64,000 nt of DNA from Candidatus Limnocylindrales bacterium (GTDB lineage: Bacteria; Chloroflexota; Limnocylindria; Limnocylindrales; CSP1-4), in contig DASTIE010000177.1 in assembly GCA_035717865.1 (NCBI GenBank), positions 547-64,546 of the forward strand, read 5' to 3'. The stretch's first letter is position 1. Each line of letters starts with the position of its first letter. Shown in pieces: positions 2,005-47,115 of this stretch. The notes under the pieces were generated by a model. It ran no database searches. It was not told where the DNA came from and worked only from the letters and a program-made list of their open reading frames with translations. The translations under genes and the position numbers were made by a program.

Positions 2005-2021
2005 TGCCACAAGGATGCAAC
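2005..2021 (+). promoter_or_regulatory. Motif copy 1, TGCCACAAGGATGCAAC, 66 nt upstream of the lipoprotein start at 2088
   Basis: Most divergent member of the 8-copy motif family described in the findings. Confidence 0.35.
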
Positions 2022-2087
2022 GCAGTTCCCGGACCCTCCGCTCGACCGACGCGGAGCGGTACCGCGTCATCGCGCAGGAGACCGGCG

Positions 2088-2552
2088 ATGCGATTGCACA
2101 TGCTCGGGTTGCTTGCTGTCACGGCGCTGTCACTCGCCGCGTGCGCACAGGCCGGCGCCCCAGCCACGACGGCACCGTCCATGCCGGCGGCTGCGTCCGC
2201 GCTCGCGGCGCCGACGGCGTCCCCGCTCCCGACGCCCGTCCCCACGCTGCTCAACCCGGCGCCGCCGGAGATGCTCGGCAAGTGGATGACCGAGTTCGCG
2301 GAGGGCGACATCGGGACGATCACGATCTCGCCGACGGGCATTCGGATCAAGCGCTTCGCCAGCGCGGACGTGCGGCTCGAGGTGTTCGGCGACGAGCTGG
2401 TGCTGTCGCACAGCCAGCTGTGCACCGGCGAGGGCCGCTACCGCTGGTCGATCGAGGGCGACGAGCTCCGCTTCGACTCGATCGAGCCGGACGCCTGCGA
2501 CGGGCGAGCCAAGACCTTCAACGGCGTGACCTTCACGCGCGTTCCCGCCTGA
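2088..2552 (+). CDS. Small secreted lipoprotein (hypothetical)
   Basis: MRLHMLGLLAVTALSLAACAQ carries a signal peptide and lipobox (LAAC). It is followed by an Ala/Pro-rich linker and a ~100 aa domain. The ORF-track start at 1773 is an upstream in-frame extension. Confidence 0.6.
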   Translation: MRLHMLGLLAVTALSLAACAQAGAPATTAPSMPAAASALAAPTASPLPTPVPTLLNPAPPEMLGKWMTEFAEGDIGTITISPTGIRIKRFASADVRLEVFGDELVLSHSQLCTGEGRYRWSIEGDELRFDSIEPDACDGRAKTFNGVTFTRVPA

Positions 2553-2564
2553 GCGCCGCGTCCG

Positions 2565-2581
2565 TGCCACAGATCTGCAAT
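2565..2581 (+). promoter_or_regulatory. Motif copy 2, TGCCACAGATCTGCAAT, 60 nt upstream of the GTG at 2642
   Basis: Member of the 8-copy motif family; variant ending GCAAT. Confidence 0.35.
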
Positions 2582-2641
2582 GAGGATGACCGACGCTTCA
2601 CGACGAGCCACCTCGGCTCGAACACATGGGAGGACCAGCTG

Positions 2642-3916
2642 GTGACGAAGCCACCCGCAATCGTGCGGCGAGAGCACCGCGGCTCGAGCCGCAAGGCATT
2701 GCTCGTTGCCGCCGTCAGTGCCCTCATCGCCGGCGGCATGCCGGCGACTGTCTCAGCGGATACGGCGCCGACGCTCGCCTCCCTCAGCCCGGACACCGTG
2801 AGCGCGAGCGCCGAAGGGCTCGTGCTGCTCGTGAGCGGCGACGGAATCGGCACGAGCTCGTTGCTGCAGTGGCGTGGCGTCGACCATCCGATCACGTTCC
2901 TGGCGGACGTCGGATCGGACGGCGGTACCCTCGGCTCCCTCATCCCGGCCTCGGAGCTCGCCATCAGCGAGGCGTTCCTCACGGTCTCCGTCACCGTCTC
3001 CACGGGCGGCGCCGTGTCCAACCCGCGGCCGGTGACGATCATCGGATCGGGGGTCAGCTCCGCGAGCAGCGCGATCGTCGGTTTCGGAGGGACCGCCACG
3101 GTTGCCACGCCGCGGCTGACCGCGACATACACGCGGGCCGCTGCAGGCTTCGGCACGCTGACGGCCGCGGACTACCTCGTCCCCAGCAGCCCGCCGATCA
3201 TCCCGAGCCCGCCGCCGATCTTCCCCGTCGCGTACGTCGACCTGCAGCTGCTGAATGCCGGCCCTGGCGATTCGCTGGTTGGGACGTTCGTGCCCCCGAA
3301 CCCGATCCTGCCGCCCAACCCCGTCCTGCCGCCGAACCCGATCCTGCCGCCGAGCCCGATCCGTCTTGCGTACTGGACCGGCTCGTCGTGGGATGCCGTC
3401 CTCGGCAGCGGAGGAATCGCGCCGGTCCTGTCGTTCGACGGCGCGACGATGACCGCCACATCCGCCACGGTCACCTTCGACCTCACCAGCGCGCCGCAGA
3501 TCGGTGCGCTCGGCGGCACCGTGTTCGCCTTCGTGACGGCCTACGCCTTCGAGGGGTTCTCGGCGCCGATCGATACCCACTCCACGAACGTCGCGCGCGC
3601 CGGACGAACGATCCCGGCGAAGTGGCTGGTCTACGACCTCGCCGGCAATCCGGTCGAGGGACTGGACCCTGCGACGGTGCAGCTCACCTCGGTTCGCGTC
3701 GACTGCGGCGCCGTCACGGGCGGAAGCGATCCGGTCGAGGCGTACGCATCCGGCTCGTCCGGGCTCATCGAGATGGGCGGCGGGGCCTACCAGTGGAACT
3801 GGGCCACGGAGAAGAGCTGGGCCGGCACCTGCCGGCGGCTGCGGCTGGACCTCGGCGATCGCAACCCGGACGGGACGCCGATCTACCGGACGGCCGACTT
3901 CGAGTTCACGCGGTAA
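2642..3916 (+). CDS. Secreted protein with PxNP(I/V)LPP heptad repeats (hypothetical)
   Basis: A GTG start at 2642 is preceded by GGGAGGA. VTKPPAIVRREHRGSSRKALLVAAVSALIAGGMPATVSA is a plausible signal peptide. Repeats ILPPNPVLPPNPILPPSPI occur at nt ~3295-3365. The long upstream in-frame extension to 1646 overlaps the neighbouring genes and is rejected. Confidence 0.55.
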   Translation: MTKPPAIVRREHRGSSRKALLVAAVSALIAGGMPATVSADTAPTLASLSPDTVSASAEGLVLLVSGDGIGTSSLLQWRGVDHPITFLADVGSDGGTLGSLIPASELAISEAFLTVSVTVSTGGAVSNPRPVTIIGSGVSSASSAIVGFGGTATVATPRLTATYTRAAAGFGTLTAADYLVPSSPPIIPSPPPIFPVAYVDLQLLNAGPGDSLVGTFVPPNPILPPNPVLPPNPILPPSPIRLAYWTGSSWDAVLGSGGIAPVLSFDGATMTATSATVTFDLTSAPQIGALGGTVFAFVTAYAFEGFSAPIDTHSTNVARAGRTIPAKWLVYDLAGNPVEGLDPATVQLTSVRVDCGAVTGGSDPVEAYASGSSGLIEMGGGAYQWNWATEKSWAGTCRRLRLDLGDRNPDGTPIYRTADFEFTR

Positions 3917-5458
3917 CGCCGGCGCCGGCCTCTTCCCGCGGACTTGCCCCTGCGTTCGATGCCCGGGTCGCCTCGCCGTACACGCCGCGCTGGCGCGGCG
4001 GGAGCAGCGCGGCGATCCGGGCCATGATCAGGCGGGTGGCGGCCTCGGTCGCCCGGCGGCCCTTCGTCGGCTGGCCGGTCGCCTCGAGCTCCTCGGGGAC
4101 CTTGAACGGCGTTCCGTAGCGGACCACCACGCGCTTGCCGGACTTCGGCAGGAGGCTGCCCTTCGGCCAGAGGCGGTCGCTGTCGACGACCGCCACGGGC
4201 AGCACCGGCGCGCCGCTCCGGAGCGCGAGCATCCCGGCGCCCTCGCGGACCGACTGCAGCGCTCCGTCCCGGCTGCGCGTGCCCTCCGGAAAGATGGCCA
4301 GCACCTGGCCGGCATCGAGGATCCGCATCGCCGAGCGGAACGCCTCCAGGTCGGCCGCCTCGCGATCGACGGGGTGGATCGCGGCGGCACGGAACGCCCA
4401 GCCCGCGGGCGGCCACTCCACGAGCTCGCGCTTGCCGAGCCAGTTCAGCGGCCGGTCGATGTCCTGGCTGAGGAACGAGGTGATGAGCACGGGGTCCGCG
4501 CTGGAGGCGTGGTTGGACGCGACGATCAACGGCCCAGTGCGCGGGATGGCGTCGAGATCGCCCTCGGATCGGAACCTCGCGATTCCCCGAACGATCGCGC
4601 GCAGCGCGACGTTGCCGAGGCGGTACAGCCAGCTCCGGCCGGTCGCGATGGGCGTCGCGCGCATTGGCTTGCGCTCCGTCCCCGCTCGGCGCGGGCGATC
4701 CGCTTTGGGAGAGGCTGCCCCCTGGTCAGGATCACGCGTGTCCTCGGTCGCCGCGGCGGGCCCGGGCCGGCGCTCTGTGGCCTGGTCCTCCTCGGTGCGC
4801 CGGATGACTTCGACGACCTCGGCCACCGTCTTCTCGAACGTGTTGCCGTCTGTGTGCAGGACCACCGCGTCCGCCGCCTGGCGAAGCGGCGCCACCTCGC
4901 GGGTCGAGTCGAGCCGGTCCCGCCGCCGAAGCTCCTCCAGGATCTCGCGCCCTTTCCGCCCGGCTGGGTCGACACCCCGCTCAACCGCCCGCCGCCGGGC
5001 CCGCTCCTCGACCGAGGCGTCGAGGAAGAGCTTCAGGTCGGCGTCCGGGAGCACGATCGTCCCGACGTCGCGCCCGGCCATGATGATCCGGCCCCGCAGC
5101 GCCAGCGCCCGCTGCCGCTCGAGCAGCGACAGCCGCAGCTCCGCGACCGCCGAGTACGCGGAGACGGCGACGTCCACGTCCGGCAATCGCACGTCGCCCG
5201 TCCGGTCGACGCCGTCGATCGCGACGTGCGCCAGCCGGCCGTCGCCGACGTCGAGCAGCTCGATCTCGCGGACCAGTGGGACCAGTCGTTCGTGCGCCGA
5301 CGCGGCGATGCCGCGATGGAGCGCGAGCCAGGTCACGGCGCGATACAGCAGACCGGTGTCGCAGAACCGGTAGCCGAGCTCCTTGGCCGCCGCGGCCCCG
5401 ACGCTGCTCTTGCCCGACGACGCAGGCCCGTCGAGGGCAACGACGAGGCTCTCTCGGG
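3906..5458 (-). CDS. cmk: Bifunctional cytidylate kinase / 1-acyl-sn-glycerol-3-phosphate acyltransferase (cmk-plsC fusion)
   Basis: The N-terminal half has the CMP kinase P-loop LVVALDGPASSGKSSV and a TGLLYRA motif. A ~60 aa Pro/Asp/Arg linker follows. The C-terminal half has acyltransferase motifs NHASSAD (HxxxxD) and FPEGTRS. It is one continuous ORF. The start is chosen as the GTG at 5458 because GGAGGA lies 4 nt upstream; the ORF-track start at 5774 would run through the intergenic motif. Confidence 0.75.
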
Positions 5459-5538
5459 CCTCTCTCACGGTTCCTCCGGCGTCCGGCACATGGCCGCGAG
5501 CATAGCCGGGGCCCCGCCGCCGTTCGGTGCGGCGCCGT

Positions 5539-5555
5539 TGCCACGGGATTGCAAC
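5539..5555 (+). promoter_or_regulatory. Motif copy 3, TGCCACGGGATTGCAAC (extends to the dyad GTTGC-N9-GCAAC), 55 nt upstream of the ATG at 5611
   Basis: Lies in the cmk / Gly-rich gene intergenic region and is oriented toward the + strand gene. Confidence 0.45.
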
Positions 5556-5610
5556 AGCCATCGGAGACCCTTCGCAGCATGAGCCGTATGCCCGCCCGGA
5601 GGACCGCAGG

Positions 5611-6981
5611 ATGAACCGCAGAAGCAGCTCCGCGCAGCGGCGGCTTGCCGTCGTGACCGTTGCGGGACTCATGGCGCTCGCGCCCGCGCCGTCGGCCTTC
5701 GCAACGGAGCAGGTCACCTTCTCCACGACCGGCGCCGAGCAGACGTGGATCGTCCCCAGCGGCGTCTCAGCCATTCACGTCGTCCTGATCGGGGGCCGAG
5801 GTGGCGATGCGGTGAGCGGCAGCGGCTTCGGCCACGCGGTTTCGGGCGACCTCGCGGTGACAGCGGGCATGACCCTCTACGTTGAAGTGGGCGGCAATGG
5901 AGCCAACTCGATCGGGCTCCCAGGAGCAGCGGGCGGATTCAACGGCGGCGGCGCGGGCGGCTCGGGCACGGGCAATGCCGGAGCGGGCGGTGGCGGCGCC
6001 AGCGATATCCGGACCGTGAGCGACACGGCTCCTGACACCCTTGATTCCCGCCTCATCGTCGCGGGCGGCGGCGGCGGTCGCGGCGGCGGTGCCGGGGCGG
6101 GCGCCGGCCTGGGAGGATCCGCCGGTGCGGCGGGCGGCGATGGACCCTCGACGTTCGGGTCACCCGGACTCGGCGGTGGAGCAGGAACAAGCTCGGCCGG
6201 CGGTGCGGGAGGAGCGGCCGGCGGTACGAGCGACAGTGCCGGGACCGACGGCGCGGAGGGGTCGGGCGGCACGGGAGGCAATCAGACAACCGGCACCGTG
6301 GGCAACAACGGTGGTGGTGGTGGCGGCGGTGGCGGCGGGTTCCACGGCGGCGGCGGCGGCGGAGCCGGTGCAGGTGGTGGTGGCGGCGGCGGTGGTGGGT
6401 CGAGCTACGTCGGCGCAGCCACGGGGGCATTCATCTCGCCAGACACGGCGGGCGTCCCGTCGATCACGATCAGCTATGAGGTCGGTCCGGATACGCCGCC
6501 CGATCCGACGCCGGGCGGCGACACCGGCACCGTTGACGCGGCGATCTCCATGGCCGACGCCGCGCTCTGTCTCGAGCTCTCGACGACGAGCATCGACTTC
6601 GGCGATCGGCAGTTCGGCGACGAGGGCGTCCGGGGGACTCCGGACCTGAACGTCACGAACTGCGGAGAGATGCCGACGACGCTGCTCGCGCGAGGAACGG
6701 ACGCCTCCGCGACGGATGCCTCATGGAACCTCGTGAAGAACAACGCCACGTGCGATGACACGCTCGGCATCGACAACTACCACCTGGCTCTCCAGGAGGG
6801 CGTGTCGGGCAGCACGGCCGTGTGGCAGCTCGGCACGTCGAACACGGAGCTCCTTGAGGTGCCTGCCGGGATCTTCGCGCCCTTCTGGCCGACGATCGAT
6901 GCCGCCTGTCCGGGCAGCTCCGGTGGCGGCCAGGAGATGGAGATGCAGATCGTGTTCGTGGCGACGGAGCCTGCGCCGTGA
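5611..6981 (+). CDS. Secreted glycine-rich protein (ALK/LTK-type glycine-rich domain family-like)
   Basis: The ATG at 5611 is preceded by GGAGGA. MNRRSSSAQRRLAVVTVAGLMALAPAPSAFA is a signal peptide. The EQTWIVPSGVSAIHVVLIGGRGGDA..G-rich pattern is present, with long poly-Gly tracts. A non-repetitive C-terminal domain follows. Confidence 0.65.
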   Translation: MNRRSSSAQRRLAVVTVAGLMALAPAPSAFATEQVTFSTTGAEQTWIVPSGVSAIHVVLIGGRGGDAVSGSGFGHAVSGDLAVTAGMTLYVEVGGNGANSIGLPGAAGGFNGGGAGGSGTGNAGAGGGGASDIRTVSDTAPDTLDSRLIVAGGGGGRGGGAGAGAGLGGSAGAAGGDGPSTFGSPGLGGGAGTSSAGGAGGAAGGTSDSAGTDGAEGSGGTGGNQTTGTVGNNGGGGGGGGGGFHGGGGGGAGAGGGGGGGGGSSYVGAATGAFISPDTAGVPSITISYEVGPDTPPDPTPGGDTGTVDAAISMADAALCLELSTTSIDFGDRQFGDEGVRGTPDLNVTNCGEMPTTLLARGTDASATDASWNLVKNNATCDDTLGIDNYHLALQEGVSGSTAVWQLGTSNTELLEVPAGIFAPFWPTIDAACPGSSGGGQEMEMQIVFVATEPAP

Positions 6982-7057: not shown

Positions 7058-7074
7058 GGTACTCTCGGCGGGTC

Positions 7075-19805: not shown

Positions 19806-19822
19806 TGCCACAGGACTGCAAC
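19806..19822 (+). promoter_or_regulatory. Motif copy 4, TGCCACAGGACTGCAAC (dyad GTTGC-N9-GCAAC), 23 nt upstream of the ATG at 19846
   Basis: TACTGT (TANNNT) lies 8-13 nt upstream of the ATG, consistent with a leaderless transcript. Confidence 0.5.
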
Positions 19823-19845
19823 AGGCGATTCCTACTGTCCCGGTC

Positions 19846-20433
19846 ATGCTGACGTTCCATCGCCGCCTCGCCGCGCTTCTGACCGTCGTGAGCCTGGCCC
19901 TTGGCGCCTGTGGCGGTTCCGCGGCCACCAGCCCGCCGGGCGCGGGCAATCCCACTGCAGGTCCGGGTGCGACGCCCGGCGACGCCGCCGGGACGCCCGC
20001 CGGAGTCGCGACCCAGGCTTCCGGTGCTCCTGGCGGTCCCGATGCCGCCACGGACCCGTGCAGCCTCCTGACCGCCGAGGAGATCAAGACGGCCACCGGC
20101 TTCTCGCCCATCAGCGCGACCCCCGGCCCGACGATGGGCGTCTTCGATGTCGGGTGCGAGTGGGAGCTGGACAACGAGGGCAGCGGCGTGCCCTGGAGCA
20201 TCGTGATCGGCCTGCGAGCCGATGGCGGGCGCGAGTACTACGACGACTACTTCGCACCCCCGGTCGGCGAGGGCGAGGTGCTCCAGGGTGTCGGAGACGC
20301 CGCCATCCAGACGGACATCGGCGACGTGAACGCGGTCCGGAACGACGTGATGTTCAGCGTCAGCTACATCGAGTTCCCGTCTCGAAACGACGTGCCCGTT
20401 GCCCTCGCGAAGCTCATCGCGAGCAAGCTGTGA
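19846..20433 (+). CDS. DUF3558-like secreted lipoprotein
   Basis: MLTFHRRLAALLTVVSLALGACGG has a lipobox. A Gly/Pro/Ala linker is followed by DPCSLLTAEEI..GC.W, the motif shared by the paralogs at 20430, 21156, 27037 and 31014. Confidence 0.7.
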   Translation: MLTFHRRLAALLTVVSLALGACGGSAATSPPGAGNPTAGPGATPGDAAGTPAGVATQASGAPGGPDAATDPCSLLTAEEIKTATGFSPISATPGPTMGVFDVGCEWELDNEGSGVPWSIVIGLRADGGREYYDDYFAPPVGEGEVLQGVGDAAIQTDIGDVNAVRNDVMFSVSYIEFPSRNDVPVALAKLIASKL

Positions 20434-21104
20434 GCGACCTCCGAACGACCGGCGCGACCACGAACGGGAAGGCCCGGGCGAGCCTCGTCACCAGCCGTCC
20501 ATCGGCCACGATTGCCGCCTTTGCGGCGGCGCTCCTGCTCGCGGCCTGCTCCGGGGCGCCGAACCCACCCGGCGCCCCCGGCGCGACAGGGGCCCAGGGC
20601 GGGCCCGCCGGAGCCACTGCGGCGCCCGCCGGCCCGACCGCCACGCAGGCGCCCGGCGGCGCTTCCGCGACGGCGGCTCCCGGCGGCCCGGGCGCGACGC
20701 TCGCGCCCGGAGCGAGTCCCAGCACGGACGCCTGCGCGGTCCTGTCCGCGACAGACATCCAGGCCGTCACGGGGGCGACGCTCGTGACGACCGTGCCCGC
20801 CCAGCAGCAGGGAATCTTCACCAACGGCTGCCTCTACGAGCTTAATGACGGGTCGACGACGACCACGGTCAACCTCGGCGTCATGGTGCCCGGCGGTCGC
20901 GCGTACTACGACGCCAACGTCCGCAACGCCGGCTACGGCTCGATCGAGGGCCTGGGCGAGGCGGCGGTCAAGGCCCGCGCGGGCGCAGTGATGGTCCTCG
21001 CCGGAGACGTCCTCTTGAGCGTGCAGTACTTCGGCCCGACCGGGCCGGACGACAGCACGGCCGCGGAGTTCGCGACGAAGATCCTCGCGAACCTCGGGCT
21101 GTAG
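20430..21104 (+). CDS. DUF3558-like lipoprotein, paralog
   Basis: GTGA overlap with the preceding stop. Lipobox LLLAACSG; DACAVLSATDI..GCLYEL motif. Confidence 0.6.
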   Translation: MSDLRTTGATTNGKARASLVTSRPSATIAAFAAALLLAACSGAPNPPGAPGATGAQGGPAGATAAPAGPTATQAPGGASATAAPGGPGATLAPGASPSTDACAVLSATDIQAVTGATLVTTVPAQQQGIFTNGCLYELNDGSTTTTVNLGVMVPGGRAYYDANVRNAGYGSIEGLGEAAVKARAGAVMVLAGDVLLSVQYFGPTGPDDSTAAEFATKILANLGL

Positions 21105-21115
21105 GGCCACATGGC

Positions 21116-21132: not shown

Positions 21133-21155
21133 AGGGCGTCCGTAGCGTTCGGCGC

Positions 21156-27639: not shown

Positions 27640-30600
27640 ACCGTGGGGCGACGCTCCTGCGTCGCCGGATCGTCGTCCTCCTCGCCGCTGCCCTCCTCGC
27701 CTCCTGCACCCCCGCTGCAACGCCGGACCCGAGCGGCGCGTGGGTCGCGCGCTGGGAGCCGCGCACTGCGTGGGAACGAGCCCTCGCGACTCTCGATCCC
27801 GCAACCGGTACGTTCGCCAGGGACGACGCCCTGCGCCTGTTCGCGACGGCATTCGGGCCGCTGCCCGGCGTCGACGTCCAGCAGGACCTCACCGGAATCA
27901 CCGATCGGACCATCGCGATCGCAGCGGTCAAGGCCTACGAATCGGAGCTGACCGAGGACCAGCGCGCGGCGATCGATGCCGCGATTGCACCCCCACCCGA
28001 CAGCCTGCGGGTCGTGGTGAGCGATGAGGCCGCGGACGCCCGGCCGGCGTCGATCGACAGCAGGCCCGCAACCGGGCTGGTGCCCGTGGCGCTCGCGCGG
28101 GCGCGAGCCGATCCTGCTGCCGCCGGTGTCGGGCTGACCGCGAGCAGCACCTTCGCCCCAGGGCTCAAGGAGGCGATCGAGGAGTCCGTCGCCACGTACC
28201 GCACCATCATCGCGGCCAAGCTCGGAATGAGCCTGTCCGGGAAGATCACCGTGAACCTCGCGCCCCAGCCGAAGAACGAGCCCAATGTTCTTGGTCAGGC
28301 CTGGAGCAAGTGGCCCGGGGGTGTGTTCGGCGACTGCGAGATCACGGTCTTCCCGCTCGCGACGGATCTCGGCGGCGTGGAGACGCTCGACACGCTCGCC
28401 CACGAGGTCTTCCACTGCTTCCAGTTCGACGGGTACCACTCGCTCCTGCAGTATGCCTACGCGCCCCGGTGGGTCATCGAGGGCCAGGCAGCCTGGGTCG
28501 GCGAGACGCTTGCCGGGGGTGACACGGGCGTTCCGTTCAACCATTGGCGGCGGTATCTCACGCTGCCGTGGCTGTCCCTGACCGGGCGCGTGTATGACGC
28601 CATCGGCTTCTATTCGCACCTCGCCGAGTCGGGCATCGATCCCTGGACGCGATTCCGCGCGATGTGGGGGGCGGGCAGCGACAGCGCCGCCGCATTCGTC
28701 AATTCCGACGCCGAAGGCCCGAGCTTCCTGGAGTCGTGGGGCTCCAGCATCGTGCGGGAGGCCGCTCGTGGCGCGTCCTGGGACACCACCGGTCCGAGCA
28801 TCACGGAGGATTCCTACTTCCTGCGACCCGCGGACATGATCGGCGGCGACGACGTCAGGCGGATCGCCACGCCCGAGTTCACCGCCGATGCGTTCCAGTA
28901 CGAGGCCACGGCGGACATGGTCAGGATCAGCATCCCGGGTCAGGCCCGCCTGAGCGACGGAAAGCTGGACACGACCGAGCTCGCCGGAGTCACGTTCTGC
29001 GTCGAAGGCCACGACTGCTCGAAGGCCACCGCCTGCCCGGGCGAGGAGAACGAGCCCCAGGCGAAGGCCGTGATCGGTTCGCGCTTCGTCATCGGCATCA
29101 GCGGCGGTGTCAAGCCCATGACGGGGACCATCCGGGGCATCAGGATCGGGAGTCCCGACGAATGCCCGAGCGCCCCTCCCGAGACCCCGCCGCCGCCCTC
29201 GCGCGCTCCTGGTGCGTCGCCGCCGCGGCCGCCGGCTTCGACCGGCCGCACCCCGTGCCAGTCGAGCTGCGGGCAGTCGAACGGCGACGTGCACATCGAC
29301 ACCTTCGGTGCGTTCGACTACGACTTCCAGGGCGTGGGGGAGTTCGTCGTGGCCCGATCCGCGGACGGCCGCTTCGAGGTCCAGACGCGCCAGGCGCCGT
29401 TCGGCGACTCGAAGGTCGTATCCATCAACACCGCGGTGGCAGTCAAGGCCGGCGGCCAGCGCATGGCCCTGTACGTCGACGTCCGGACGAACACGGTTCG
29501 CCTGTCCGTGAACGGGCTGGACGTGCCGATGGCCGCCCCGGTCGCGTTCGGGGCCGGCCTGATCGTGCCCTCAACCGAGGGTGTCCGCATCGACACGGGC
29601 GACGGCAGCTACGTCGACGTGATCGGCACGAGCCATCGCGGGTTGAACCTGCTGGTCGAGCCGGGCGTGGATCGGCTGGCGGGCATCGTTGGGCTCATGG
29701 GGCTGAACGCGAAGGACAGCCGCTGGCCGGCGCTGCCGGATGGTTCGGCCATCCTCCCCTATCCGTTCGATCGCCACACCGAGTACGCCCAACTCTACGA
29801 GACCCTCGCTCCCGCGTGGCGAGTCACGCCCGCGTCCTCGCTGTTCGACTACGCGCCGGGCGAGTCGACCGACACCTTCACGAACCAGCGCTTCCCGGCC
29901 GAGGTCGACTTCATCTCACTCGCCGACCTGACACCGGCCCAGCGTGCCGCCGGCGAGGAAGCCTGCGCGGGCGTCACCGACCCGGACCTCCACGACATGT
30001 GCGTCTTCGACGTCGGCGTGACGTCGGATTTCGGGTACGGCGATGTCTACGAGACGACCATCCGGCTGCGCGAGACGGGCGAGCTCGGGTTCAGCGGCGA
30101 ACGGGTCCGCATCGTCAACCTGTATGCCAACGACGGCCGCGGCACGGATCTCGACGTGTACGCATGGGCGGGCGACGCGGCCAACCTTGGGGACTCGGGC
30201 ACGGGCCCGGTGCTCGTGACCACGGTGCCGTACGGACAGTCGAGCGATTGGTTCGACCCGGGCCGGATGGCCAACGGACCCTTCGCCCCCGTGACCTGGA
30301 TCTCGGTCCAGCGGCACGGCGAGCCCGTGAACACCTGGCAGCTCAACCTGTTCGACCTGGGCCGTGACGTCCTGGCCGGCCTCGAACGCACGTTCGTCCT
30401 GGCGAGCGATCGCGACGGATTCAGCGCCGTCGGCGGCACCCCTGGGGGTCGCCAGGAGATCCTCGAGCAGGCGCCGGAAAGCTTCTTCCCGCTGATCGAC
30501 GCACCCGCCGGCAAGGCGCTTGCCTTCCTTGATGCCGCGCCGATGTCGGACGTGGACGAGACGCAGCAGTGGGCCGCGAGCGTCGACGGCACGTGCCTCG

Positions 30601-30860
30601 CCGATCCCGACTTCCCGACGCTGGTGCGGACCGCCCTGGGCGACGCGCTCCGGCCGGTGGTCCTCGAGCCCGGTTCCGTCGATATCGCGGTGCACGAGTT
30701 CCCGCCCGGCGCCGACAGCTTCGACCTGAGCTGCGCGCGCCTGCCGATCGTGGCGCGGACCCACGTCACCGTGGCAGCCGGCGATCGCGTCCACCTGTTC
30801 ATCTACGCGGAGAGCGCGACGGCTCCGACCCGCCTCCTGGCCTTGCGGGTCGGCGACTAG
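27636..30860 (+). CDS. Large secreted lipoprotein with HExxH metalloprotease-like N-terminal region, VWD-like domain and C-terminal extension
   Basis: GTGA overlap with the upstream stop. Lipobox LLASCTP; HEVFHCFQ. A VWD-like segment CQSSCGQSNGDVHIDTFGAFDYDFQGVGEFVVARS starts at nt ~29250. The N-terminal ~550 aa are paralogous to 21772-23574. Confidence 0.65.
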   Translation: MNRGATLLRRRIVVLLAAALLASCTPAATPDPSGAWVARWEPRTAWERALATLDPATGTFARDDALRLFATAFGPLPGVDVQQDLTGITDRTIAIAAVKAYESELTEDQRAAIDAAIAPPPDSLRVVVSDEAADARPASIDSRPATGLVPVALARARADPAAAGVGLTASSTFAPGLKEAIEESVATYRTIIAAKLGMSLSGKITVNLAPQPKNEPNVLGQAWSKWPGGVFGDCEITVFPLATDLGGVETLDTLAHEVFHCFQFDGYHSLLQYAYAPRWVIEGQAAWVGETLAGGDTGVPFNHWRRYLTLPWLSLTGRVYDAIGFYSHLAESGIDPWTRFRAMWGAGSDSAAAFVNSDAEGPSFLESWGSSIVREAARGASWDTTGPSITEDSYFLRPADMIGGDDVRRIATPEFTADAFQYEATADMVRISIPGQARLSDGKLDTTELAGVTFCVEGHDCSKATACPGEENEPQAKAVIGSRFVIGISGGVKPMTGTIRGIRIGSPDECPSAPPETPPPPSRAPGASPPRPPASTGRTPCQSSCGQSNGDVHIDTFGAFDYDFQGVGEFVVARSADGRFEVQTRQAPFGDSKVVSINTAVAVKAGGQRMALYVDVRTNTVRLSVNGLDVPMAAPVAFGAGLIVPSTEGVRIDTGDGSYVDVIGTSHRGLNLLVEPGVDRLAGIVGLMGLNAKDSRWPALPDGSAILPYPFDRHTEYAQLYETLAPAWRVTPASSLFDYAPGESTDTFTNQRFPAEVDFISLADLTPAQRAAGEEACAGVTDPDLHDMCVFDVGVTSDFGYGDVYETTIRLRETGELGFSGERVRIVNLYANDGRGTDLDVYAWAGDAANLGDSGTGPVLVTTVPYGQSSDWFDPGRMANGPFAPVTWISVQRHGEPVNTWQLNLFDLGRDVLAGLERTFVLASDRDGFSAVGGTPGGRQEILEQAPESFFPLIDAPAGKALAFLDAAPMSDVDETQQWAASVDGTCLADPDFPTLVRTALGDALRPVVLEPGSVDIAVHEFPPGADSFDLSCARLPIVARTHVTVAAGDRVHLFIYAESATAPTRLLALRVGD

Positions 30861-30914: not shown

Positions 30915-30931
30915 TGCCACGGAATTGCAAC
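30915..30931 (+). promoter_or_regulatory. Motif copy 7, TGCCACGGAATTGCAAC, 22 nt upstream of the ATG at 30954
   Basis: Consensus copy. Confidence 0.5.
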
Positions 30932-31013
30932 CGCCGTTCGCGATCCTCCGGCCATGGACCAGCCCACGCACCGCGCCCGGCTCGCCCCGCGCCAGGCCCG
31001 ACAGGAGTTGACC

Positions 31014-31637
31014 ATGTCGCGAATCGAGAACCCGAGCCCCGCGGCGCCACGCACGCTCCGGGCGCTGCCCCTCGCGGCCTTCGTGGCGGTCCTTGCCGGC
31101 CTCGCCGCATGCAGCTCGCCGGCGGACACCGCGCCCGGGACGACCGGGACGAGCACCACGGCAGGCCCGACCGGCACGTCAGGCGTCGCGGGCACGCCCG
31201 CTGCAGGTACGACAACCGGCCCGGCCGCGACCTCCGGCACGGGGAACGGCAACGGCAACGGCGTCACGAACGCACGCGCCTGCGACCTGCTCAGCGATGC
31301 GGACCTCCAGGAGATCACGCAGTCGGCGGTGATCGCGAAGACCGACACCGCGGCGGACACGATCTTCGCGAACTTCTGCCGCTGGAACCTGCCGGGCGCC
31401 GAGATCGACCTCGGCGTGGTCAGTCCGGGCGGCCGCGCCTGGTACGACGAGCACGTCGCGATCCTGAACGGCCTGCAGCCGGTGTCGGGCCTGCCCGCCG
31501 ACGTCGCGGTCCTCCAGGAGCTGACGGGGTCGATCTTCGCCGTGAAGGGCGACACCTACATCGACCTCTTCACCATCGGCGTCCGTGCGCCCGACGAGGA
31601 CCTCGTGCGCCGGGTCCTCGAGAACCTGGGGCAGTAG
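31014..31637 (+). CDS. DUF3558-like lipoprotein, paralog
   Basis: The ATG at 31014 has an AGGAG SD; lipobox LAGLAACSS; ACDLLSDADL..FCRWNL motif. An alternative in-frame start at 30954 lies 22 nt after the motif. Confidence 0.65.
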   Translation: MSRIENPSPAAPRTLRALPLAAFVAVLAGLAACSSPADTAPGTTGTSTTAGPTGTSGVAGTPAAGTTTGPAATSGTGNGNGNGVTNARACDLLSDADLQEITQSAVIAKTDTAADTIFANFCRWNLPGAEIDLGVVSPGGRAWYDEHVAILNGLQPVSGLPADVAVLQELTGSIFAVKGDTYIDLFTIGVRAPDEDLVRRVLENLGQ

Positions 31638-33020
31638 GTGGGCGGCAACCGCGGCCGCCTGGTCGGGAACCACGTTGACCGCGCCCGCGACGACCGCGCC
31701 GGCTGCAGCGAGGGCGGCGGCACCGTCACTCGCCTCCTGGCGGTGATCGCAGCCATCGCCGTGGCCGCCGCGGGCCAGCTCGCGCACCCGTCGCCCGCAT
31801 GGGCGTCATGGGGTGGCTCGATCTCGGTGTCCTTCGGCAACGGGGACGGAGCCGGGCGGGTGACGAGCGACGATGACGGAATCGACTGCCGCTACGCCAA
31901 CGGCGGCGCCTCGGGCGATTGCAGCCAGACCTACATCTTCCCGGACTTCCAGAGCTCGGTCCTGGTGACCATCACCTACACGCCCAGTCAGGGCAGCTAC
32001 CTCTGTGTGGGCAGCGCCGGTGGCTGCGTCACGAGCGGGGCGCCGCATTCCGTGACCCTCGAGTTCCGGCCGGAGTACGGCAATGTGGTCACGCTCACAC
32101 CCAGATTCGAGCTCACGTCGTACCGGCTGCAGGCCAGGATCGACGGTCCGGGGACCATCTCGAGCAACGGCACGCCGTGCTCTCCGAGTACGACATTGGA
32201 CTGGTGTGCGCTCTTCAAGCACGGAACCACTGCCACGCTCACGGCGCAACCGGCCGCCGGCTCGATCTTCACCTACTGGTCCGGAAATCCGTGCACGGGC
32301 TTCGATCCCGTCTGCTCGCTGACCGTGACCGAGGACTCGAACTACCTCGTGGTCTTCGGGAAGGTGAACATCTCCCTCGACATCGAGGGCTCGGGAACGG
32401 CCTGCGCCACGTCGGGGGCCAGGCTGTGCACGGAAGGGCTGATCCCGCCCGTGAGCAACTTCATCGCGGTTGGCACCACGCTGGTGATCGAGGCCAAGCC
32501 CGAGAAGGGCTGGCGCTTCGATCACTGGAACAGCGGGCCGTGTGGCGGCCAGGGCCTGACCTGTACCTTCACCGTGAAGGCCGCCAAATCCCTCGTTGCA
32601 ACGTTCAAGCGAATCCCGACGGCCACACCCACGCCGAAGCCGACACCGAAGCCGACCCCCAGGGCGACGCCGGCAACGGTCGCCACACCACGACCCACGG
32701 CCCCTTCAACTCCGGTCGCGGTGGCGCCGCCCGCCGCCAGCGCGGAACCGGCCCCGACGCTGGGCGCAGGCGAGCAGCCCCTGCCGACGTGGGATCCGCC
32801 GCCGTCGGTGCTGCAGACGGAGGAGCCGGTGGCCCCCGCCGTGACACTCGCGACCTCGCCGGTGCCCTCGTTCGCGACCGTCTCCACCGGGGCGGCCTCG
32901 GTGGCCACCGGGCCCGACGGGTTGATGCTCCTGCTCCTCGTGTTGCTGGCTGCCGGCGCGTTCGCGCTGCTCGGATTCGCCCTCGGTCGGCGGCGAGGGG
33001 CTACGCGACCTCGCGCTTGA
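31638..33020 (+). CDS. Surface protein with tandem divergent InlB-B-repeat-like Cys-containing domains, Pro/Thr-rich stalk and C-terminal TM anchor
   Basis: Signal peptide LLAVIAAIAVAAAGQLAHPSPAWA. Repeated ~80 aa modules with conserved C..C and F.YWSGNPC / FDHWNSGPCGG. PTPKPTPKPTP linker. Ends LLLLVLLAAGAFALLGFALGRRRG. N-terminal start uncertain. Confidence 0.55.
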   Translation: MGGNRGRLVGNHVDRARDDRAGCSEGGGTVTRLLAVIAAIAVAAAGQLAHPSPAWASWGGSISVSFGNGDGAGRVTSDDDGIDCRYANGGASGDCSQTYIFPDFQSSVLVTITYTPSQGSYLCVGSAGGCVTSGAPHSVTLEFRPEYGNVVTLTPRFELTSYRLQARIDGPGTISSNGTPCSPSTTLDWCALFKHGTTATLTAQPAAGSIFTYWSGNPCTGFDPVCSLTVTEDSNYLVVFGKVNISLDIEGSGTACATSGARLCTEGLIPPVSNFIAVGTTLVIEAKPEKGWRFDHWNSGPCGGQGLTCTFTVKAAKSLVATFKRIPTATPTPKPTPKPTPRATPATVATPRPTAPSTPVAVAPPAASAEPAPTLGAGEQPLPTWDPPPSVLQTEEPVAPAVTLATSPVPSFATVSTGAASVATGPDGLMLLLLVLLAAGAFALLGFALGRRRGATRPRA

Positions 33021-44614: not shown

Positions 44615-45465
44615 GCCGCGAGCCCCTGGCCAACCGCGTCGAGCCGCCGCGCGATCGCTGCCTGGAGCGCCGCGGGCCGCTCGAGGTTCGCCGCCCGTCG
44701 CGCTGCCGGCGGCACCCGGAGATGCAGCAGGAACTCGCGGTTGCCCTCCGGTCCAAGGATGGGCGAGGCGATGGCGTCCAGCGGCTCCAGCCCCGCCGCG
44801 AGCGCCGCGCCGGCGACAACGTGGAGGACCCGGGTGTGGATCGCCGGGTCGCGGACAACGCCATCGCGGACCTCGCCGCGGCCGGCCTCGAACTGCGGCT
44901 TGACGAGCGGCACGATGTCGCCGCCGGCCTGCTCGAAGGTCGAGGCGATCGGTGCAAGGACGTGGCGGAGGGAGATGAACGAGACGTCGATGCTGGCCAG
45001 CGACACCCGCTCCGGGAGCGAATCCGGCGTGAGCGCGCGGGCGTTCGTCCGCTCCATCGAGATGATCCTCGAATCGCGCCGGAGTGTCTCCGCCAGCTGG
45101 CCGCGCCCGACGTCGACGGCGTAGACGCGGCGCGCGCCGCGCTGCAGCAGCACGTCCGTGAACCCGCCCGTCGAGGCGCCCGCATCGAGGCACACGCGAC
45201 CTGCCGGCTCGACGCCGAACGCGTCCAGCGCCGCCGCGAGCTTGTGGCCCCCGCGGCTGACGTACGGCTCCGGCGTCGCGACCTCCAGCGGGATATCCGG
45301 ATCCACCTGGTCGCCGGGCTTCCGATCGAATCTCGCCGCATCGCCGGCGCCCACCCGGACCTTGCCGGCAAGCAGCAGGGCCTGGGCACGGGAGCGCGAT
45401 TCGGCGAGCCCCCGCTCGACGATCAGCTGGTCCAGTCGAACCCGGGAGGTGCGCACGCCGCTCAC
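44611..45465 (-). CDS. tlyA: TlyA-family rRNA 2'-O-methyltransferase
   Basis: S4 domain followed by an FtsJ-like methyltransferase (LDAGASTGGFTD). Conserved tlyA-nadK-recN order. Confidence 0.85.
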   Translation of the reverse strand: MSGVRTSRVRLDQLIVERGLAESRSRAQALLLAGKVRVGAGDAARFDRKPGDQVDPDIPLEVATPEPYVSRGGHKLAAALDAFGVEPAGRVCLDAGASTGGFTDVLLQRGARRVYAVDVGRGQLAETLRRDSRIISMERTNARALTPDSLPERVSLASIDVSFISLRHVLAPIASTFEQAGGDIVPLVKPQFEAGRGEVRDGVVRDPAIHTRVLHVVAGAALAAGLEPLDAIASPILGPEGNREFLLHLRVPPAARRAANLERPAALQAAIARRLDAVGQGLAA

Positions 45466-45570
45466 CGGGCCATGGTCGCATATGCCACTTCACCCGGACT
45501 CACCGGTCGCCGGCGAATCGCTCCCTGCCTCGTATGTCCCGCGGCGTCTCCACCGCGGTGGCCCGCGCTG

Positions 45571-47076
45571 TCAGCCAGCGGTTTCGTCGGCCCCTTCGTG
45601 CTCACGCCGCCGGTTCGTCGGGGCGGCGACGATCAGGCTGCCGGCCAGCACGCCGAGCGCGGCGAGCAGCAGCCAGGGGAGGTTCGGGGTCCGCCCGCTC
45701 CGAGGCTCGCCGAGGGTGTCCGTCTGCGGCCCGGTCGTCTCATTGGAAACAGAGCCGGCAAAGCTCGTCGTCGTCGTGGCGGCGCTCGATGTCGAGGAGT
45801 TCCCTTGGGACGTCGACGACGAGGTCTCGCTGCTCGACGAGTCGGTCGTCGACGACGTCTCGGTGGTCGACGACGAGTCGGTGGTCGTGGAGCTGACTGA
45901 CGTCGATGCGGTATCGGACGTGGTGGTCTCGGTGACCGTCGTTGTCTCGGTGGCCGTCGTTGTCGTGGTCGAGGCGGTCTCCGTGGTCGTTGACGACTCC
46001 GTCGTGGTTGAAGACGTGGTCGTGGACGAGGTCGTCGTCTCCTCGACGATCGTGTACGACTGGTACTCGGTCTCGCTGTCCTGGAAGGTCGTGCCCTCGG
46101 CGGCGGAGTAGCAGACCGCGAAGATCCAGTCGGACGGCGTGTCGAAGGTCTCCTGGAACGAGGCCTTGCCCTCGGCGTCGAGGGGGCCGGATGCGATCGG
46201 CGAGCCCATGCCGCAGAAGCCGCCGATGATGATCGCGACGTTGCCCTGCGGGGTTGTGCCCGATGCTGCGGTGACGACGACGTCGAAGGTCACCGTGCCG
46301 CCGGCGTACTGCTGGTCGGCGGGCGTGATGGTGAGCGTCGGGGTCGTGACGTTGTCGACGATCTTGTACGACTGGTACTCGGTCTCGCTGTCCTGGAAGG
46401 TCGTGCCCTCGGCGGCGGAGTAGCAGACCGCGAAGATCCAGTCGGACGGCGTGTCGAAGGTCTCCTGGAACGAGGCCTTGCCCTCGGCATCGAGGCCGCC
46501 GAAGGCCAGCGGCGAGCCCATGCCGCAGAAACCGCCGGTCATGATCGCCACGTTGCCCTGGGGGATCGCGCCTGAGGCGGCCGTGACGGCGACGTCGAAG
46601 GTCACCGTGCCGCCGGCGTACTGCTGATCGGCGGGCGTGATGGTGAGCGTCGGGGTCGTGACGTTGTCGACCACGGAATACGGGAGATCGCCTGAGATGC
46701 TGCTCTGGAACGCGCTGTCCGCTGGCGGGCCGTAGCAGGCGGTGAGCTGGTACTCATACGGCGCCACGAAGGTATAGGTGAGGGACGCCTTGCCCTCGGC
46801 GTCCAGCGTGCCAGACACCAGTGGCGAGCCGAACAGGCAGCCCGACGTGTGGATGTAGACGGGCCCCTGGGGGATCGCGCCCGATTCGGACGTCACGGTG
46901 ATGTCGAAGGTCGTCGTGCCACCCGTGTACTGCACGTCGGCGGGCGTGATCGTGAAGGTCGTGGTGGTCGGGTCTTCACCCGCAGCGACAACCGGCGCCG
47001 CTGAGCCGGCCATTGCGGCAATCAGGGTGGCGAGAACGAGTGCGCGGCGAGGGGATCGGCGATCGAAGGTTGACAT
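45571..47076 (-). CDS. Cell-surface protein with three Ig-like repeats, Thr/Ser-rich stalk and C-terminal TM anchor
   Basis: Signal peptide ALVLATLIAAMAGSAAPVVAAG. Three ~104 aa repeats, of which two are near-identical. ~120 aa of T/S-rich low complexity. Ends LLLAALGVLAGSLIVAAPTNRRRE. Confidence 0.65.
   Translation of the reverse strand: MSTFDRRSPRRALVLATLIAAMAGSAAPVVAAGEDPTTTTFTITPADVQYTGGTTTFDITVTSESGAIPQGPVYIHTSGCLFGSPLVSGTLDAEGKASLTYTFVAPYEYQLTACYGPPADSAFQSSISGDLPYSVVDNVTTPTLTITPADQQYAGGTVTFDVAVTAASGAIPQGNVAIMTGGFCGMGSPLAFGGLDAEGKASFQETFDTPSDWIFAVCYSAAEGTTFQDSETEYQSYKIVDNVTTPTLTITPADQQYAGGTVTFDVVVTAASGTTPQGNVAIIIGGFCGMGSPIASGPLDAEGKASFQETFDTPSDWIFAVCYSAAEGTTFQDSETEYQSYTIVEETTTSSTTTSSTTTESSTTTETASTTTTTATETTTVTETTTSDTASTSVSSTTTDSSSTTETSSTTDSSSSETSSSTSQGNSSTSSAATTTTSFAGSVSNETTGPQTDTLGEPRSGRTPNLPWLLLAALGVLAGSLIVAAPTNRRREHEGADETAG
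46054..46677 (-). repeat. Two near-identical 312-bp tandem repeats inside the surface-protein gene
   Basis: Long identical DNA stretches at 46054+ and 46366+. Period 312 bp = 104 aa. A third diverged copy follows. Confidence 0.7.
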
Positions 47077-47098
47077 GGCCCGAGGCTATGGGCCCGCT

Positions 47099-47115
47099 GT
47101 TGCAATTCCGTGGCA
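47099..47115 (-). promoter_or_regulatory. Motif copy 8 (minus strand), TGCCACGGAATTGCAAC, 22 nt upstream of the start at 47076
   Basis: Consensus copy, the only one on the minus strand. It is oriented toward the minus-strand surface-protein gene. Confidence 0.5.

Follow-up and report, generated by a model that had tools for sequence, protein, structure and literature searches.

The SARP sites described in the literature consist of direct repeats spaced by 11 bp, the 3' one being 8 bp away from the -10 hexamer (PMC10936776). The closest comparator for the sites described here is the afs box in the afsS promoter of Streptomyces coelicolor (cryo-EM structures 8K60, 8JKE and 8HVR), which spans -40 to -19; contacts with AfsR are made by the first 8 bp in each of its repeats (PMC10936776). 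Sigma adaptation has been shown for AfsR. The afsS gene adjoins afsR and is directly activated by AfsR, and the afsS repeats used by AfsR are also bound by PhoP, which competes with AfsR on the afs box (PMC10972967). The boxes of the pathway-specific SARPs (ActII-ORF4, DnrI, etc.), which are small SARPs, are TCGAG-type heptamers, again repeated directly at a distance of one helical turn, with about 8 bp between the 3' copy and the -10, and the regulator is cluster-situated and serves several nearby promoters. The SARP activation mechanism is known from Streptomyces and, to our knowledge, undescribed in Chloroflexota.

We analyzed a 64-kb stretch of DNA (the window), of Limnocylindrales-like Chloroflexota and not of actinomycete origin, in which an earlier note had pointed out a 17-nt motif, TGCCAC-RGRAY-TGCAAC, with eight intergenic copies directed at genes. 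Allowing up to one mismatch, TGCCAC-N5-TGCAAC has eight matches in the window as compared to 0.07 expected. Our gene calls leave 6.5% of the window as non-coding DNA; all eight matches are found there (chance about 3e-10), and all point toward the adjacent gene, so this part of the observation holds. The copies (each given with its -10-like hexamer, and for boxes 1 to 3 with the PWM score), the genes that follow them and the two SARP genes are:

1-1965, + strand: SARP1, C-terminal 654 aa (NOD and TPR) of a second large SARP, the rest of which lies beyond the window edge
2005-2037, + strand: box 1, TGCCAC-aagga-TGCAAC, N10, GACCCT (2032-2037); 30.0 bits
2088-2552, + strand: lipoprotein gene, putative target of box 1; predicted leader of about 43 nt with an AGGAG Shine-Dalgarno
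2565-2597, + strand: box 2, TGCCAC-agatc-TGCAAT, N10, GACGCT; 33.9 bits
2642-3916, + strand: PxNP-repeat secreted protein with GTG start, putative target of box 2; predicted to be leadered, with a GGGAGG Shine-Dalgarno
5539-5571, + strand: box 3, TGCCAC-gggat-TGCAAC, N10, GACCCT; 41.9 bits
5611-6981, + strand: Gly-rich secreted protein, putative target of box 3
19806-19838, + strand: box 4, TGCCAC-aggac-TGCAAC, N10, TACTGT, then 7 nt to ATG 19846
19846-21104, + strand: DUF3558 lipoprotein operon, putative target of box 4; mRNA predicted leaderless
21116-21148, + strand: box 5, TGCCAC-aggac-TGCAAC, N10, TAGCGT, then 7 nt to ATG 21156
21156-21764, + strand: DUF3558 lipoprotein, putative target of box 5
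23702-26506, + strand: SARP2, AfsR-like large SARP of 934 aa with OmpR-type DNA-binding domain, BTAD, NB-ARC/NOD and TPR
26560-26592, + strand: box 6, TGCCAC-ggaat-TGCAAC, N10, AACCCT, then 7 nt to GTG 26600
26600-27040, 27037-27639 and 27636-30860, + strand: DUF4440 protein, DUF3558 lipoprotein and 1074-aa VWD-like protein, putative targets of box 6
30915-30947, + strand: box 7, TGCCAC-ggaat-TGCAAC, N10, GATCCT, then 6 nt to ATG 30954
30954-31637 and 31638-33020, + strand: DUF3558-like lipoprotein and InlB-B-repeat protein, putative targets of box 7
47083-47115, - strand: box 8, TGCCAC-ggaat-TGCAAC, N10, TAGCCT, then 6 nt to ATG 47076
47076-45571, - strand: Ig-like (Big_3_5) surface protein, putative target of box 8

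Six of the copies (5539, 19806, 21116, 26560 and 30915 on the + strand, and 47099-47115 on the - strand) match the proposed consensus TGCCAC-RGRAY-TGCAAC exactly, and no exact match is expected in shuffled sequence. Two copies, one at 2005 with the spacer AAGGA and one at 2565 with the spacer AGATC and the second hexamer TGCAAT, fall outside RGRAY and inside TGCCAC-N5-TGCAAC at up to one mismatch. The core CCACGGAATTGCAAC, described as almost invariant, is found in three exact copies and one copy with one mismatch; it is the two hexamers that are invariant, and the spacer is semi-conserved. The claim that every copy precedes a gene for a secreted or lipobox protein fails for one, as the product of 26600 is a cytoplasmic DUF4440/SnoaL protein, leaving a secreted first gene for seven of the eight boxes.

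We collected 28 sites from 13 loci (the window copies plus relatives). The first hexamer has the counts T26 G28 C28 (C16/A12) A26 C28, followed after N5 by T28 G28 C28 A28 A28 C25 for the second, and both the flanks and the -35 position are variable. TGCMAC and TGCAAC are 11 bp apart (start to start) in all 28 sites, i.e., a direct repeat with a period of one helical turn, as the SARP-box rule has it. A direct repeat of TGCMAC at a period of 11 bp describes the motif better than a dyad or a sigma-54 site does: the repeat fits all copies, and the dyad GTTGC-N9-GCAAC, reported as imperfect in four copies, is perfect in only two window copies. PWM scores are bimodal, with 23 matches at 27.9 bits or above in 241 kb of Limnocylindrales-type DNA and none at 14–27.9 bits; in 765 kb around distant SARPs, a match was found at a single locus (L156) only.

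A -10-like hexamer (NANNNT) is always found 10 nt downstream of TGCAAC, and its A2 and T6 are present in 28 of the 28 sites, relatives included, as compared to only 10 of 118 chance matches from unrelated genomes. The TACTGT noticed earlier before 19846 is one instance of this hexamer, which every copy has. Start codons are found 5–9 nt past the hexamer in most sites, which would imply leaderless mRNAs there. The distance of 22–23 nt between the 3' end of the motif and the start codons at 19846, 21156, 26600, 30954 and 47076 is correct as first reported; with +1 put at the start codon the repeats span -40/-39 to -19/-18, and the earlier placement of the motif at about -24 to -41 of transcripts whose leader is absent or short is supported. 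The 8-bp core of the repeat is 8 bp away from the -10 hexamer (9 nt if the repeat is taken as a heptamer, 10 nt from the end of TGCAAC), and with +1 as predicted, both this distance and the overlap with the -35 region follow the SARP-box rule within 1 bp. The poor or absent -35 and suboptimal -10 of SARP promoters are seen as well: the -35 position is variable spacer, and only A2 and T6 of the -10 are kept. A promoter scan of 19–32 kb found no canonical sigma-70 promoter.

Using Pfam, we were able to identify BTAD (E=7e-45), Trans_reg_C (E=6.8e-11), NB-ARC/AAA_22 and TPR_12 in SARP2, and its best PDB match is AfsR (8K60, E=1.3e-43, residues 7-592). The DNA-contact residues W74, R87, S91, R92 and R94 of AfsR are kept, with K95 replaced by R and T88 by S, and the recognition helix reads TTLRSYVSRLR; by architecture and DNA-contact residues the 23702-26506 protein is an AfsR-type large SARP. 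SARP1 shares 59% identity with the SARP1 of a related locus (L121), which has the same recognition helix as SARP2, and the NOD and TPR regions of the paralogous SARPs are divergent (about 42% identity). The two SARPs, which the earlier note proposed to test, appear to be the best candidates for the regulator, and SARP2 is a candidate box-binding activator.

The window and the AfsR system are alike in the ODB-BTA-NOD-TPR architecture of the regulator, in having two direct repeats of 11-bp period at about -40 to -19, and in the overlap of these repeats with a missing or poor -35 followed by a weak -10 (CACTGT in afsS; TACTGT, TAGCCT, GACCCT, etc. here). An A/T step closes the upstream repeat, which is the point where AfsR bends DNA. 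They differ in the repeat itself (CGTT(T/C)ATCG for AfsR, TGCMAC here), in the distance from the 11-bp downstream repeat to the -10 (6 bp as compared to 5 bp here), in the host (Actinomycetota as compared to Chloroflexota), in the targets (a regulator of antibiotic synthesis as compared to DUF4440 and lipoproteins or secreted proteins), and in that most transcripts here are predicted to be leaderless and the boxes to be SARP-bound. TGCMAC is unlike any published SARP box, TCGAG-type heptamers included: compared with the pathway-specific systems, the window has a hexamer core of different sequence, large SARPs instead of small ones, and no biosynthetic gene cluster. The PafBC -26 element of mycobacterial RecA-NDp promoters is also an activator site just upstream of TANNNT with the -35 absent, and works by sigma adaptation, but it is a single element used by a WYL-domain protein, as opposed to a tandem repeat and, putatively, an OmpR-type domain.

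Conservation in related DNA, proposed earlier as a check, was examined in 11 related loci, which were picked via SARP homologs. A SARP gene (OmpR-type domain plus BTAD), a box, the -10 hexamer and a DUF4440 gene follow one another in this order in 10 of the 11 (SARP identity 52–79%, several of them non-syntenic), with the box 5–54 bp past the SARP stop codon; the window contains two SARPs, whose stop codons are 40 bp (SARP1, box 1) and 54 bp (SARP2, box 6) from the next box. The exception (L119/L120) has a SARP gene without a neighboring box, and the DUF4440 gene is missing too. The cytoplasmic DUF4440 gene adjoining the SARP gene is the most conserved target, an arrangement that parallels the AfsR/afsS pair, where the prime target is also the gene next to the regulator gene. 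Box 3 is kept as well, ahead of the ortholog of the Gly-rich protein in L121 (position 6090). Within 200 bp of a SARP gene the boxes number 22 per 10 kb, falling to about 1 per 10 kb at 0.2–5 kb and to 0.1–0.3 per 10 kb (about 0.15) beyond 5 kb, the density far from SARP genes being based on about 130 kb of sequence. Of the 25 boxes in 280 kb of related DNA, 23 are within 5 kb of a SARP gene, which speaks against the dispersed, genome-wide envelope regulon envisaged at first; box 8 is the only window box farther away (20.6 kb). L156, an independent lineage, contains a SARP of only 43% identity among different neighbor genes, with TGCAAC-N5-TGCAAC boxes on both sides of the SARP gene.

Taken together, we consider it probable that these are cluster-situated SARP boxes that replace the -35 element and are bound by AfsR-like large SARPs encoded nearby. 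Judging from sequence, we infer binding, start sites and activation as follows. Each copy would be the upstream half of an activator-dependent promoter with the layout TGCMACnnnnn-TGCAACnnnnn, then a weak sigma-70-type NANNNT -10, the -35 element being absent. SARP2 and SARP1 would each occupy the two repeats as a side-by-side dimer. This dimer would take the place of the missing -35 contact (sigma adaptation) and bring in the housekeeping RNA polymerase. Transcription is predicted to start 6–7 nt past the -10 hexamer; in five window promoters the first base of the start codon (A or G) falls there, so that their mRNAs would be leaderless, and the remaining three would have leaders of about 32–43 nt with a Shine-Dalgarno. 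The NOD and TPR domains may gate the response to a signal, and the genes switched on would be the neighboring DUF4440 gene and operons close by that encode lipoproteins and large secreted or surface proteins.

Box geometry does not discriminate between SARPs and OmpR/PhoB-family response regulators, as it is the same for the sites of both. In the classical pho box, 11-bp direct repeats end 10 bp upstream of the -10 and replace the -35, the layout found here, and the PhoB, PhoP, GlnR and AfsQ1 boxes share the 11-bp period of nnAC repeats (cf. GTnAC-n6-GTnAC). A response regulator of an envelope-stress or nutrient two-component system could thus bind the boxes in the manner of a pho box, with the SARP genes being neighbors or members of the regulon; secreted proteins and lipoproteins would suit such a system, and PhoP does bind AfsR's repeats at afsS (PMC10972967). 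However, the SARPs are the only proteins with Trans_reg_C there (the window and the 11 related loci gave no Response_reg and no further Trans_reg_C), boxes are about 150 times denser close to SARP genes (within 200 bp) than more than 5 kb away, and the L156 box is beside a SARP gene even though the other genes differ. Because OmpR/PhoB regulators use the same kind of repeats at the same promoter position and PhoP competes with AfsR, we retain a response regulator encoded elsewhere as an unlikely alternative. We note that response regulators need not be linked to their targets.

The earlier note left the choice between a dedicated regulator and an alternative sigma factor; a promoter-associated site for the former is supported, and a promoter of an ECF or other group 3/4 sigma factor, with TGCAAC or TGCCAC as its -35, is very improbable and is rejected. 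Some ECF -35 elements do end in AAC, the motif is fixed in position relative to the start codon, and sigma-70-family genes are found near the SARP gene in two related loci (L203 and L206). Yet the spacing to NANNNT is 10 nt from TGCAAC and 21 nt from TGCCAC, as compared to the 16–19 nt spacer of a sigma-70-family holoenzyme, the DNA at the -35 position varies, a hexamer doubled at one helical turn is not a sigma feature, and sigma genes lack a consistent linkage to the boxes. An ECF promoter (-35 ending in AAC, spacer of about 16–17 nt, CGT/GTC -10) was looked for and not found: 16–17 nt past TGCAAC only the last base of NANNNT is conserved.

A degenerate sigma-54 (-24/-12) promoter, suggested by the superficial likeness of TGxCAC-N5-TGC to TGGCAC-N5-TTGCW, is hardly credible and is also rejected, in support of the earlier view that the motif is neither a sigma-54 site nor a canonical -35/-10 pair. 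The -24 GG reads GC in all 28 sites, the spacing from G to G is 11 instead of 12, the canonical pattern has no match in the window at up to one mismatch, and downstream are the invariant A and T of a sigma-70-type -10. The start codon is also at the wrong distance: at 22–23 nt past the motif, a sigma-54 start would leave a leader of about 10 nt without a Shine-Dalgarno. Neither the invariant GG/GC spacing nor a linked enhancer-binding protein was found (no Sigma54_activat protein among the window genes or in the related loci).

Equally implausible, and rejected, is a dispersed repeat or mobile element, or copying along with duplicated genes, without a regulatory role: boxes 4 and 5 precede paralogous DUF3558 genes and share the spacer AGGAC, and two L207 copies (14993 and 17051) have about 25 nt of common upstream flank, but the flanks of the other copies are unrelated, contrary to the copied-with-flanks element that the earlier note named as its possible refutation, orthologous sites (SARPs 52–79% identical) keep only the two hexamers and the -10 A/T, and orientation and distance to the gene start are strict.

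Returning to the SARP-bound boxes, a broader proposal is possible but tentative: several paralogous STAND-type SARP sensors with the identical helix TTLRSYVSRLR and divergent NOD/TPR regions may converge on one shared box and through it turn on leaderless transcripts of a conserved DUF4440 gene and of a variable set of genes for lipoproteins and large surface proteins, forming a self-contained signal-to-surface module in uncultured soil Limnocylindrales. In such a module the DUF4440 protein might serve as a relay in the manner of AfsS or as a partner that handles a ligand. If this is the case, SARPs would be general regulators of envelope remodeling outside Actinomycetota, and not antibiotic regulators.

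Among the proteins of the surface set are DUF3558, VWD-like, PKD, Ig-like, Gly-rich and RHS proteins. Downstream of box 3, ATG 5579 coincides with the predicted start site and opens an 11-codon uORF, and a weak third repeat (GGCCAC) is found 11 bp upstream of box 5 (21105).

All eight sites of the earlier note are recovered, with no others, by TGCCAC-N5-TGCAAC at one mismatch or fewer (0.07 expected), whereas the consensus TGCCAC-RGRAY-TGCAAC proposed for them is exact in six only (5539, 19806, 21116, 26560 and 30915 on the + strand and 47099 on the - strand; 0 expected by chance). The copies at 2005 and 2565 have spacers that depart from RGRAY, and the copy at 2565 also ends in TGCAAT; the 15-nt core described as almost invariant has just three exact copies in the window. 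Only scattered matches appear when the pattern is loosened to two or three mismatches, so the motif class is sharply bounded (the two-mismatch matches are in-frame coding matches, or an overlapping register of a true box). With window genes called by a codon-usage model (coding fraction 93.5%), all eight copies are intergenic and face the adjacent gene, as had been claimed (chance of all being intergenic ~3e-10); the observation is real and highly significant.

The box is a direct repeat of TGC-C/A-AC, with copy starts 11 bp apart, a feature that the earlier note had missed. Its dyad reading (GTTGC-N9-GCAAC) was dropped, as the T preceding the motif is found in a minority of sites, whereas the direct repeat suits all of them. 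An RNA element was also rejected: the window has no match in Rfam, and the transcript is predicted to start downstream of the motif. A third repeat further upstream is weak (at offset -11, 7 of 25 sites match at least 4 of 6 positions); examples one helical turn upstream of the box are GGCCAC at 21105-21110 and TCGCAC at 30904, and three of the related loci described below (L204-L206) have instead an extra (T/C)GCAAC 9-10 bp upstream of the box.

Exactly 10 nt past TGCAAC, all eight window copies have A at position 2 and T at position 6 of a hexamer. These are the key positions of a sigma-70-type -10 element, and the genome has a G+C content of about 72%.

Boxes in the window and their -10-like hexamers
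2005, + strand, box followed by GACCCT
2565, + strand, box followed by GACGCT
5539, + strand, box followed by GACCCT
19806, + strand, box followed by TACTGT
21116, + strand, box followed by TAGCGT
26560, + strand, box followed by AACCCT
30915, + strand, box followed by GATCCT
47099, - strand, box followed by TAGCCT

The distances of 22-23 nt reported between the motif and the start codons at 19846, 21156, 26600, 30954 and 47076 are right; at these five sites the start codon lies 6-7 nt past the hexamer, too close for a leader to fit. An ATG likewise lies 7 nt past the hexamer at 5539, but it opens a short uORF only, and at 2005, 2565 and 5539 the annotated start is found ~32-43 nt further on, behind a GGAGG-like Shine-Dalgarno. 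Because its position is fixed relative to the -10 hexamer and not to the start codon, the motif is a transcriptional element. The uORF (5579-5614, 11 codons, MSRMPARRTAG) starts at the very base predicted as transcription start for the 5539 promoter, and its stop codon shares an ATGA with the start codon of the Gly-rich gene (5611); it could be leaderless and subject to translational coupling. The ortholog in a syntenic locus (L121) lacks it and has a plain leader with a Shine-Dalgarno.

The claim that the targets are always secreted or surface proteins was too broad: a signal peptide or lipobox is found in 7 of the 8 first genes, and the gene at 26600 encodes a cytoplasmic DUF4440/SnoaL protein. 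According to Pfam, the window is a chromosomal region (cmk-plsC fusion, scpAB, xerD, recN, nadK, tlyA, dxs, xseAB and efp), and it contains two AfsR-like large SARP genes.

SARP genes in the window
1-1965, SARP1, cut by the window edge
23702-26506, SARP2, complete, with Trans_reg_C, BTAD, NB-ARC and TPR domains (Pfam)

The stops of both genes lie 40-54 bp upstream of a box (2005 and 26560, respectively). The closest homologs of the complete SARP (at most 91% identity) are metagenomic, and the named ones come from Candidatus Limnocylindrales or 'Chloroflexi bacterium' MAGs; the window is therefore from Chloroflexota, which corrects an earlier actinobacterial impression. A look-up for proteins identical to the EF-P of the window gave no match.

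We compared the DNA around ten SARP homologs (52-79% identity), including three loci syntenic with the window (L119, L121 and L202) and seven in unrelated neighbourhoods (L203-L209). In every locus but L119/L120, a DUF4440 gene directly follows the SARP gene, and the gap of 60-110 bp between them contains TGC(C/A)(A/G)C-N5-TGCAA(C/T), N10, NANNNT, N5-9 and ATG/GTG, with divergent sequence between and on either side of the elements; L119/L120 lacks both the DUF4440 gene and the box. Boxes also precede the ortholog of the Gly-rich protein (L121, 6090), a DUF3558 lipoprotein gene (L202, 210), four genes for proteins with signal peptides, downstream of the SARP gene (L207), and a gene followed by those of RHS-repeat proteins (L209). 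Over 28 sites the two hexamers of the box are nearly invariant, and A2 and T6 of the -10 hexamer are found in 28/28; by comparison, among the matches listed, the downstream A and T are found in 10 of 118 chance matches to the bare motif in unrelated genomes (negative control). A PWM built from the sites gave a bimodal distribution in 241 kb of Limnocylindrales-type DNA, with 23 matches of at least 27.9 bits and none at 14-27.9, and was almost silent in 765 kb around distant SARP homologs. A contig scan with TGCCACRGRAYTGCAAC returned, among the matches listed, mostly single chance matches from all phyla; the only genuine-looking ones among them are L053 (a Limnocylindrales MAG contig, in which the box precedes a DUF4440 gene) and perhaps L071. 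In L207, the boxes at 14993 and 17051 have near-identical 25-nt upstream flanks and precede paralogous secreted proteins (both begin MKPTFFKGALVGG), which is a recent tandem duplication of gene and promoter.

The frequency of boxes was then calculated by distance from the SARP gene in 280 kb of SARP-centred loci.

Box density by distance from the SARP gene
Up to 200 bp: 22 boxes per 10 kb
0.2-5 kb: 1.0-1.5 boxes per 10 kb
More than 5 kb: 0.1-0.3 boxes per 10 kb

This steep drop does not fit the sigma regulon pictured earlier; the motif marks a regulator-centred gene cluster. A metagenome scan with SARP2 gave distant homologs only (33-45% identity), and boxes were found in just one of their loci, L156, an independent case in which the SARP is 43% identical and the DUF4440 gene is absent. 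Here TGCAAC-N5-TGCAAC-N10-NANNNT boxes lie on both sides of the SARP gene, at 6380 (-) and 9355 (+), facing O-methyltransferase and 4-oxalocrotonate-tautomerase-like genes (putative targets). Because these boxes flank a SARP gene amid different genes, the box tracks the SARP gene and not a particular target gene, and the case suggests that the TGCAAC specificity predates the Limnocylindrales clade or extends beyond it. L156 is a high-GC metagenome contig whose context looks like a biosynthetic cluster. As for autoregulation, a scan with a 14-bit threshold found no box ahead of the SARP genes in the Limnocylindrales-type loci that it covered (two later-added loci were scanned at 12 bits); in L156 a 24-bit box does precede the SARP gene, by ~30 bp and on the strand opposite to it.

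In published SARP sites, direct repeats are spaced by 11 or 22 bp, and 8 bp separate the 3' repeat from the -10 hexamer. Two 11-bp repeats (-40 to -30 and -29 to -19) make up the afs box; AfsR touches the first 8 bp of either one, the bend that it puts into the DNA is at the final base of the upstream one, and sigma region 4 sits on the SARP dimer and does not read a -35 element (PMC10936776). In the window sites, with +1 taken as the first base of the start codon, TGCCAC would be at -40/-39 and TGCAAC at -29/-28. The distance from an 8-bp core to the hexamer would be 8 bp, a fit within 1 bp of the rule, and the semi-conserved A/T-rich spacer end (..AAT) appears to fall where AfsR bends the DNA. 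Among solved structures, the window SARP matches AfsR best (8K60, E=1.3e-43, residues 7-592), followed by EmbR, and its recognition helix RSYVSRLRR aligns to RTYASRLRK of AfsR. Among the residues that contact DNA in the AfsR transcription initiation complex (R87, T88, S91, R92, R94 and K95), R87, S91, R92 and R94 are retained, T88 is replaced by S and K95 by R. The helix TTLRSYVSRLR is common to most Limnocylindrales SARPs compared, including the paralog SARP1 of L121 (the ortholog of the truncated SARP1 of the window; 59% identity over the NOD and TPR domains), so both window SARPs could read the same box while sensing different signals. Two SARPs (L204 and L206) have the helix ATIRSYVSRLR, and the upstream repeat of both is TGCCGC (12897 and 12901), which may be protein-DNA covariation, seen in two cases from one clade.

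Judging from these sequence comparisons, the motif is likely a cluster-situated SARP box, taking the place of the -35 element at weak promoters in Limnocylindrales-like Chloroflexota. Most of these promoters would give leaderless mRNAs, and they would drive the DUF4440 gene and operons that encode lipoproteins and surface proteins. The proposed mechanism and the geometry are those of AfsR; the consensus, phylum and target class are different and new. Literature searches found nothing relevant for TGCAAC together with SARP and, among the results listed, no paper tying SARPs to Chloroflexota. The only serious rival is binding by an OmpR/PhoB-type response regulator, whose site geometry is identical (PhoP competes with AfsR on the afs box; PMC10972967), but the linkage is contrary to it: boxes cluster at SARP genes, and none of the SARP-centred loci examined has a response regulator, an enhancer-binding protein or a consistently linked sigma factor. 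The alternative or ECF sigma promoter proposed earlier is rejected, given hexamer-to--10 spacers of 10 and 21 nt and sites that lack an ECF-type -10 element. A sigma-54 promoter fails its defining features (GC in place of GG at all sites, spacing 1 nt short, 0 matches to the canonical pattern in the window), and a -10 hexamer of sigma-70 type is present. A dispersed repeat is rejected, as the flanks are unrelated and only functional positions are kept between genomes.

A large SARP gene with a DUF4440/SnoaL-like gene (~130-150 aa) directly after it (23702-27040 in the window) is found in 10 of 11 Limnocylindrales-type loci (the window, L121 and L202-L209), non-syntenic ones included, and in none of 80 loci around distant SARP homologs. 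The pair parallels AfsR, which directly activates the adjacent gene afsS (PMC10972967), and by this analogy the DUF4440 protein may work with the SARP as a functional partner or as a relay.

To our knowledge, work on SARPs has dealt almost entirely with the activation of antibiotic synthesis in actinomycetes, and the Limnocylindrales host belongs to a widespread, uncultured soil lineage. Our findings provide a precise, testable SARP box pattern (TGCMAC-N5-TGCAAC-N10-NANNNT), a conserved SARP-DUF4440 pair with a set of putative secreted-protein targets, a defined DNA probe and protein domain for binding work, a promoter architecture for annotating leaderless genes in Limnocylindrales MAGs, and an example of possible targets of large STAND-type SARPs beyond secondary metabolism.

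The region from the cmk-plsC gene to the ABC-2/TetR genes (5469-33000) is a variable island, ~27 kb in the window and ~4-8 kb in the three syntenic relatives (L119, L121 and L202); extras in the window include a PotA-type ABC importer, two GCV_T paralogs, an amine oxidase, an acyl-CoA dehydrogenase, an acyl-CoA synthetase-like gene and additional DUF3558 cassettes. Other features are as follows.

45571-47076, - strand, Ig-like (Big_3_5) protein with a long Ser/Thr-rich stalk, a C-terminal hydrophobic anchor and a basic tail
58711-59247, - strand, sortase-domain gene, 12 kb from the Ig-like protein gene
57326-58660, 59436-60152 and 60279-61721, large genes without Pfam match beside the sortase-domain gene
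3906-5468, - strand, cytidylate kinase and PlsC-type acyltransferase in a single 520-aa ORF, a fusion kept in L119, L120 and L121
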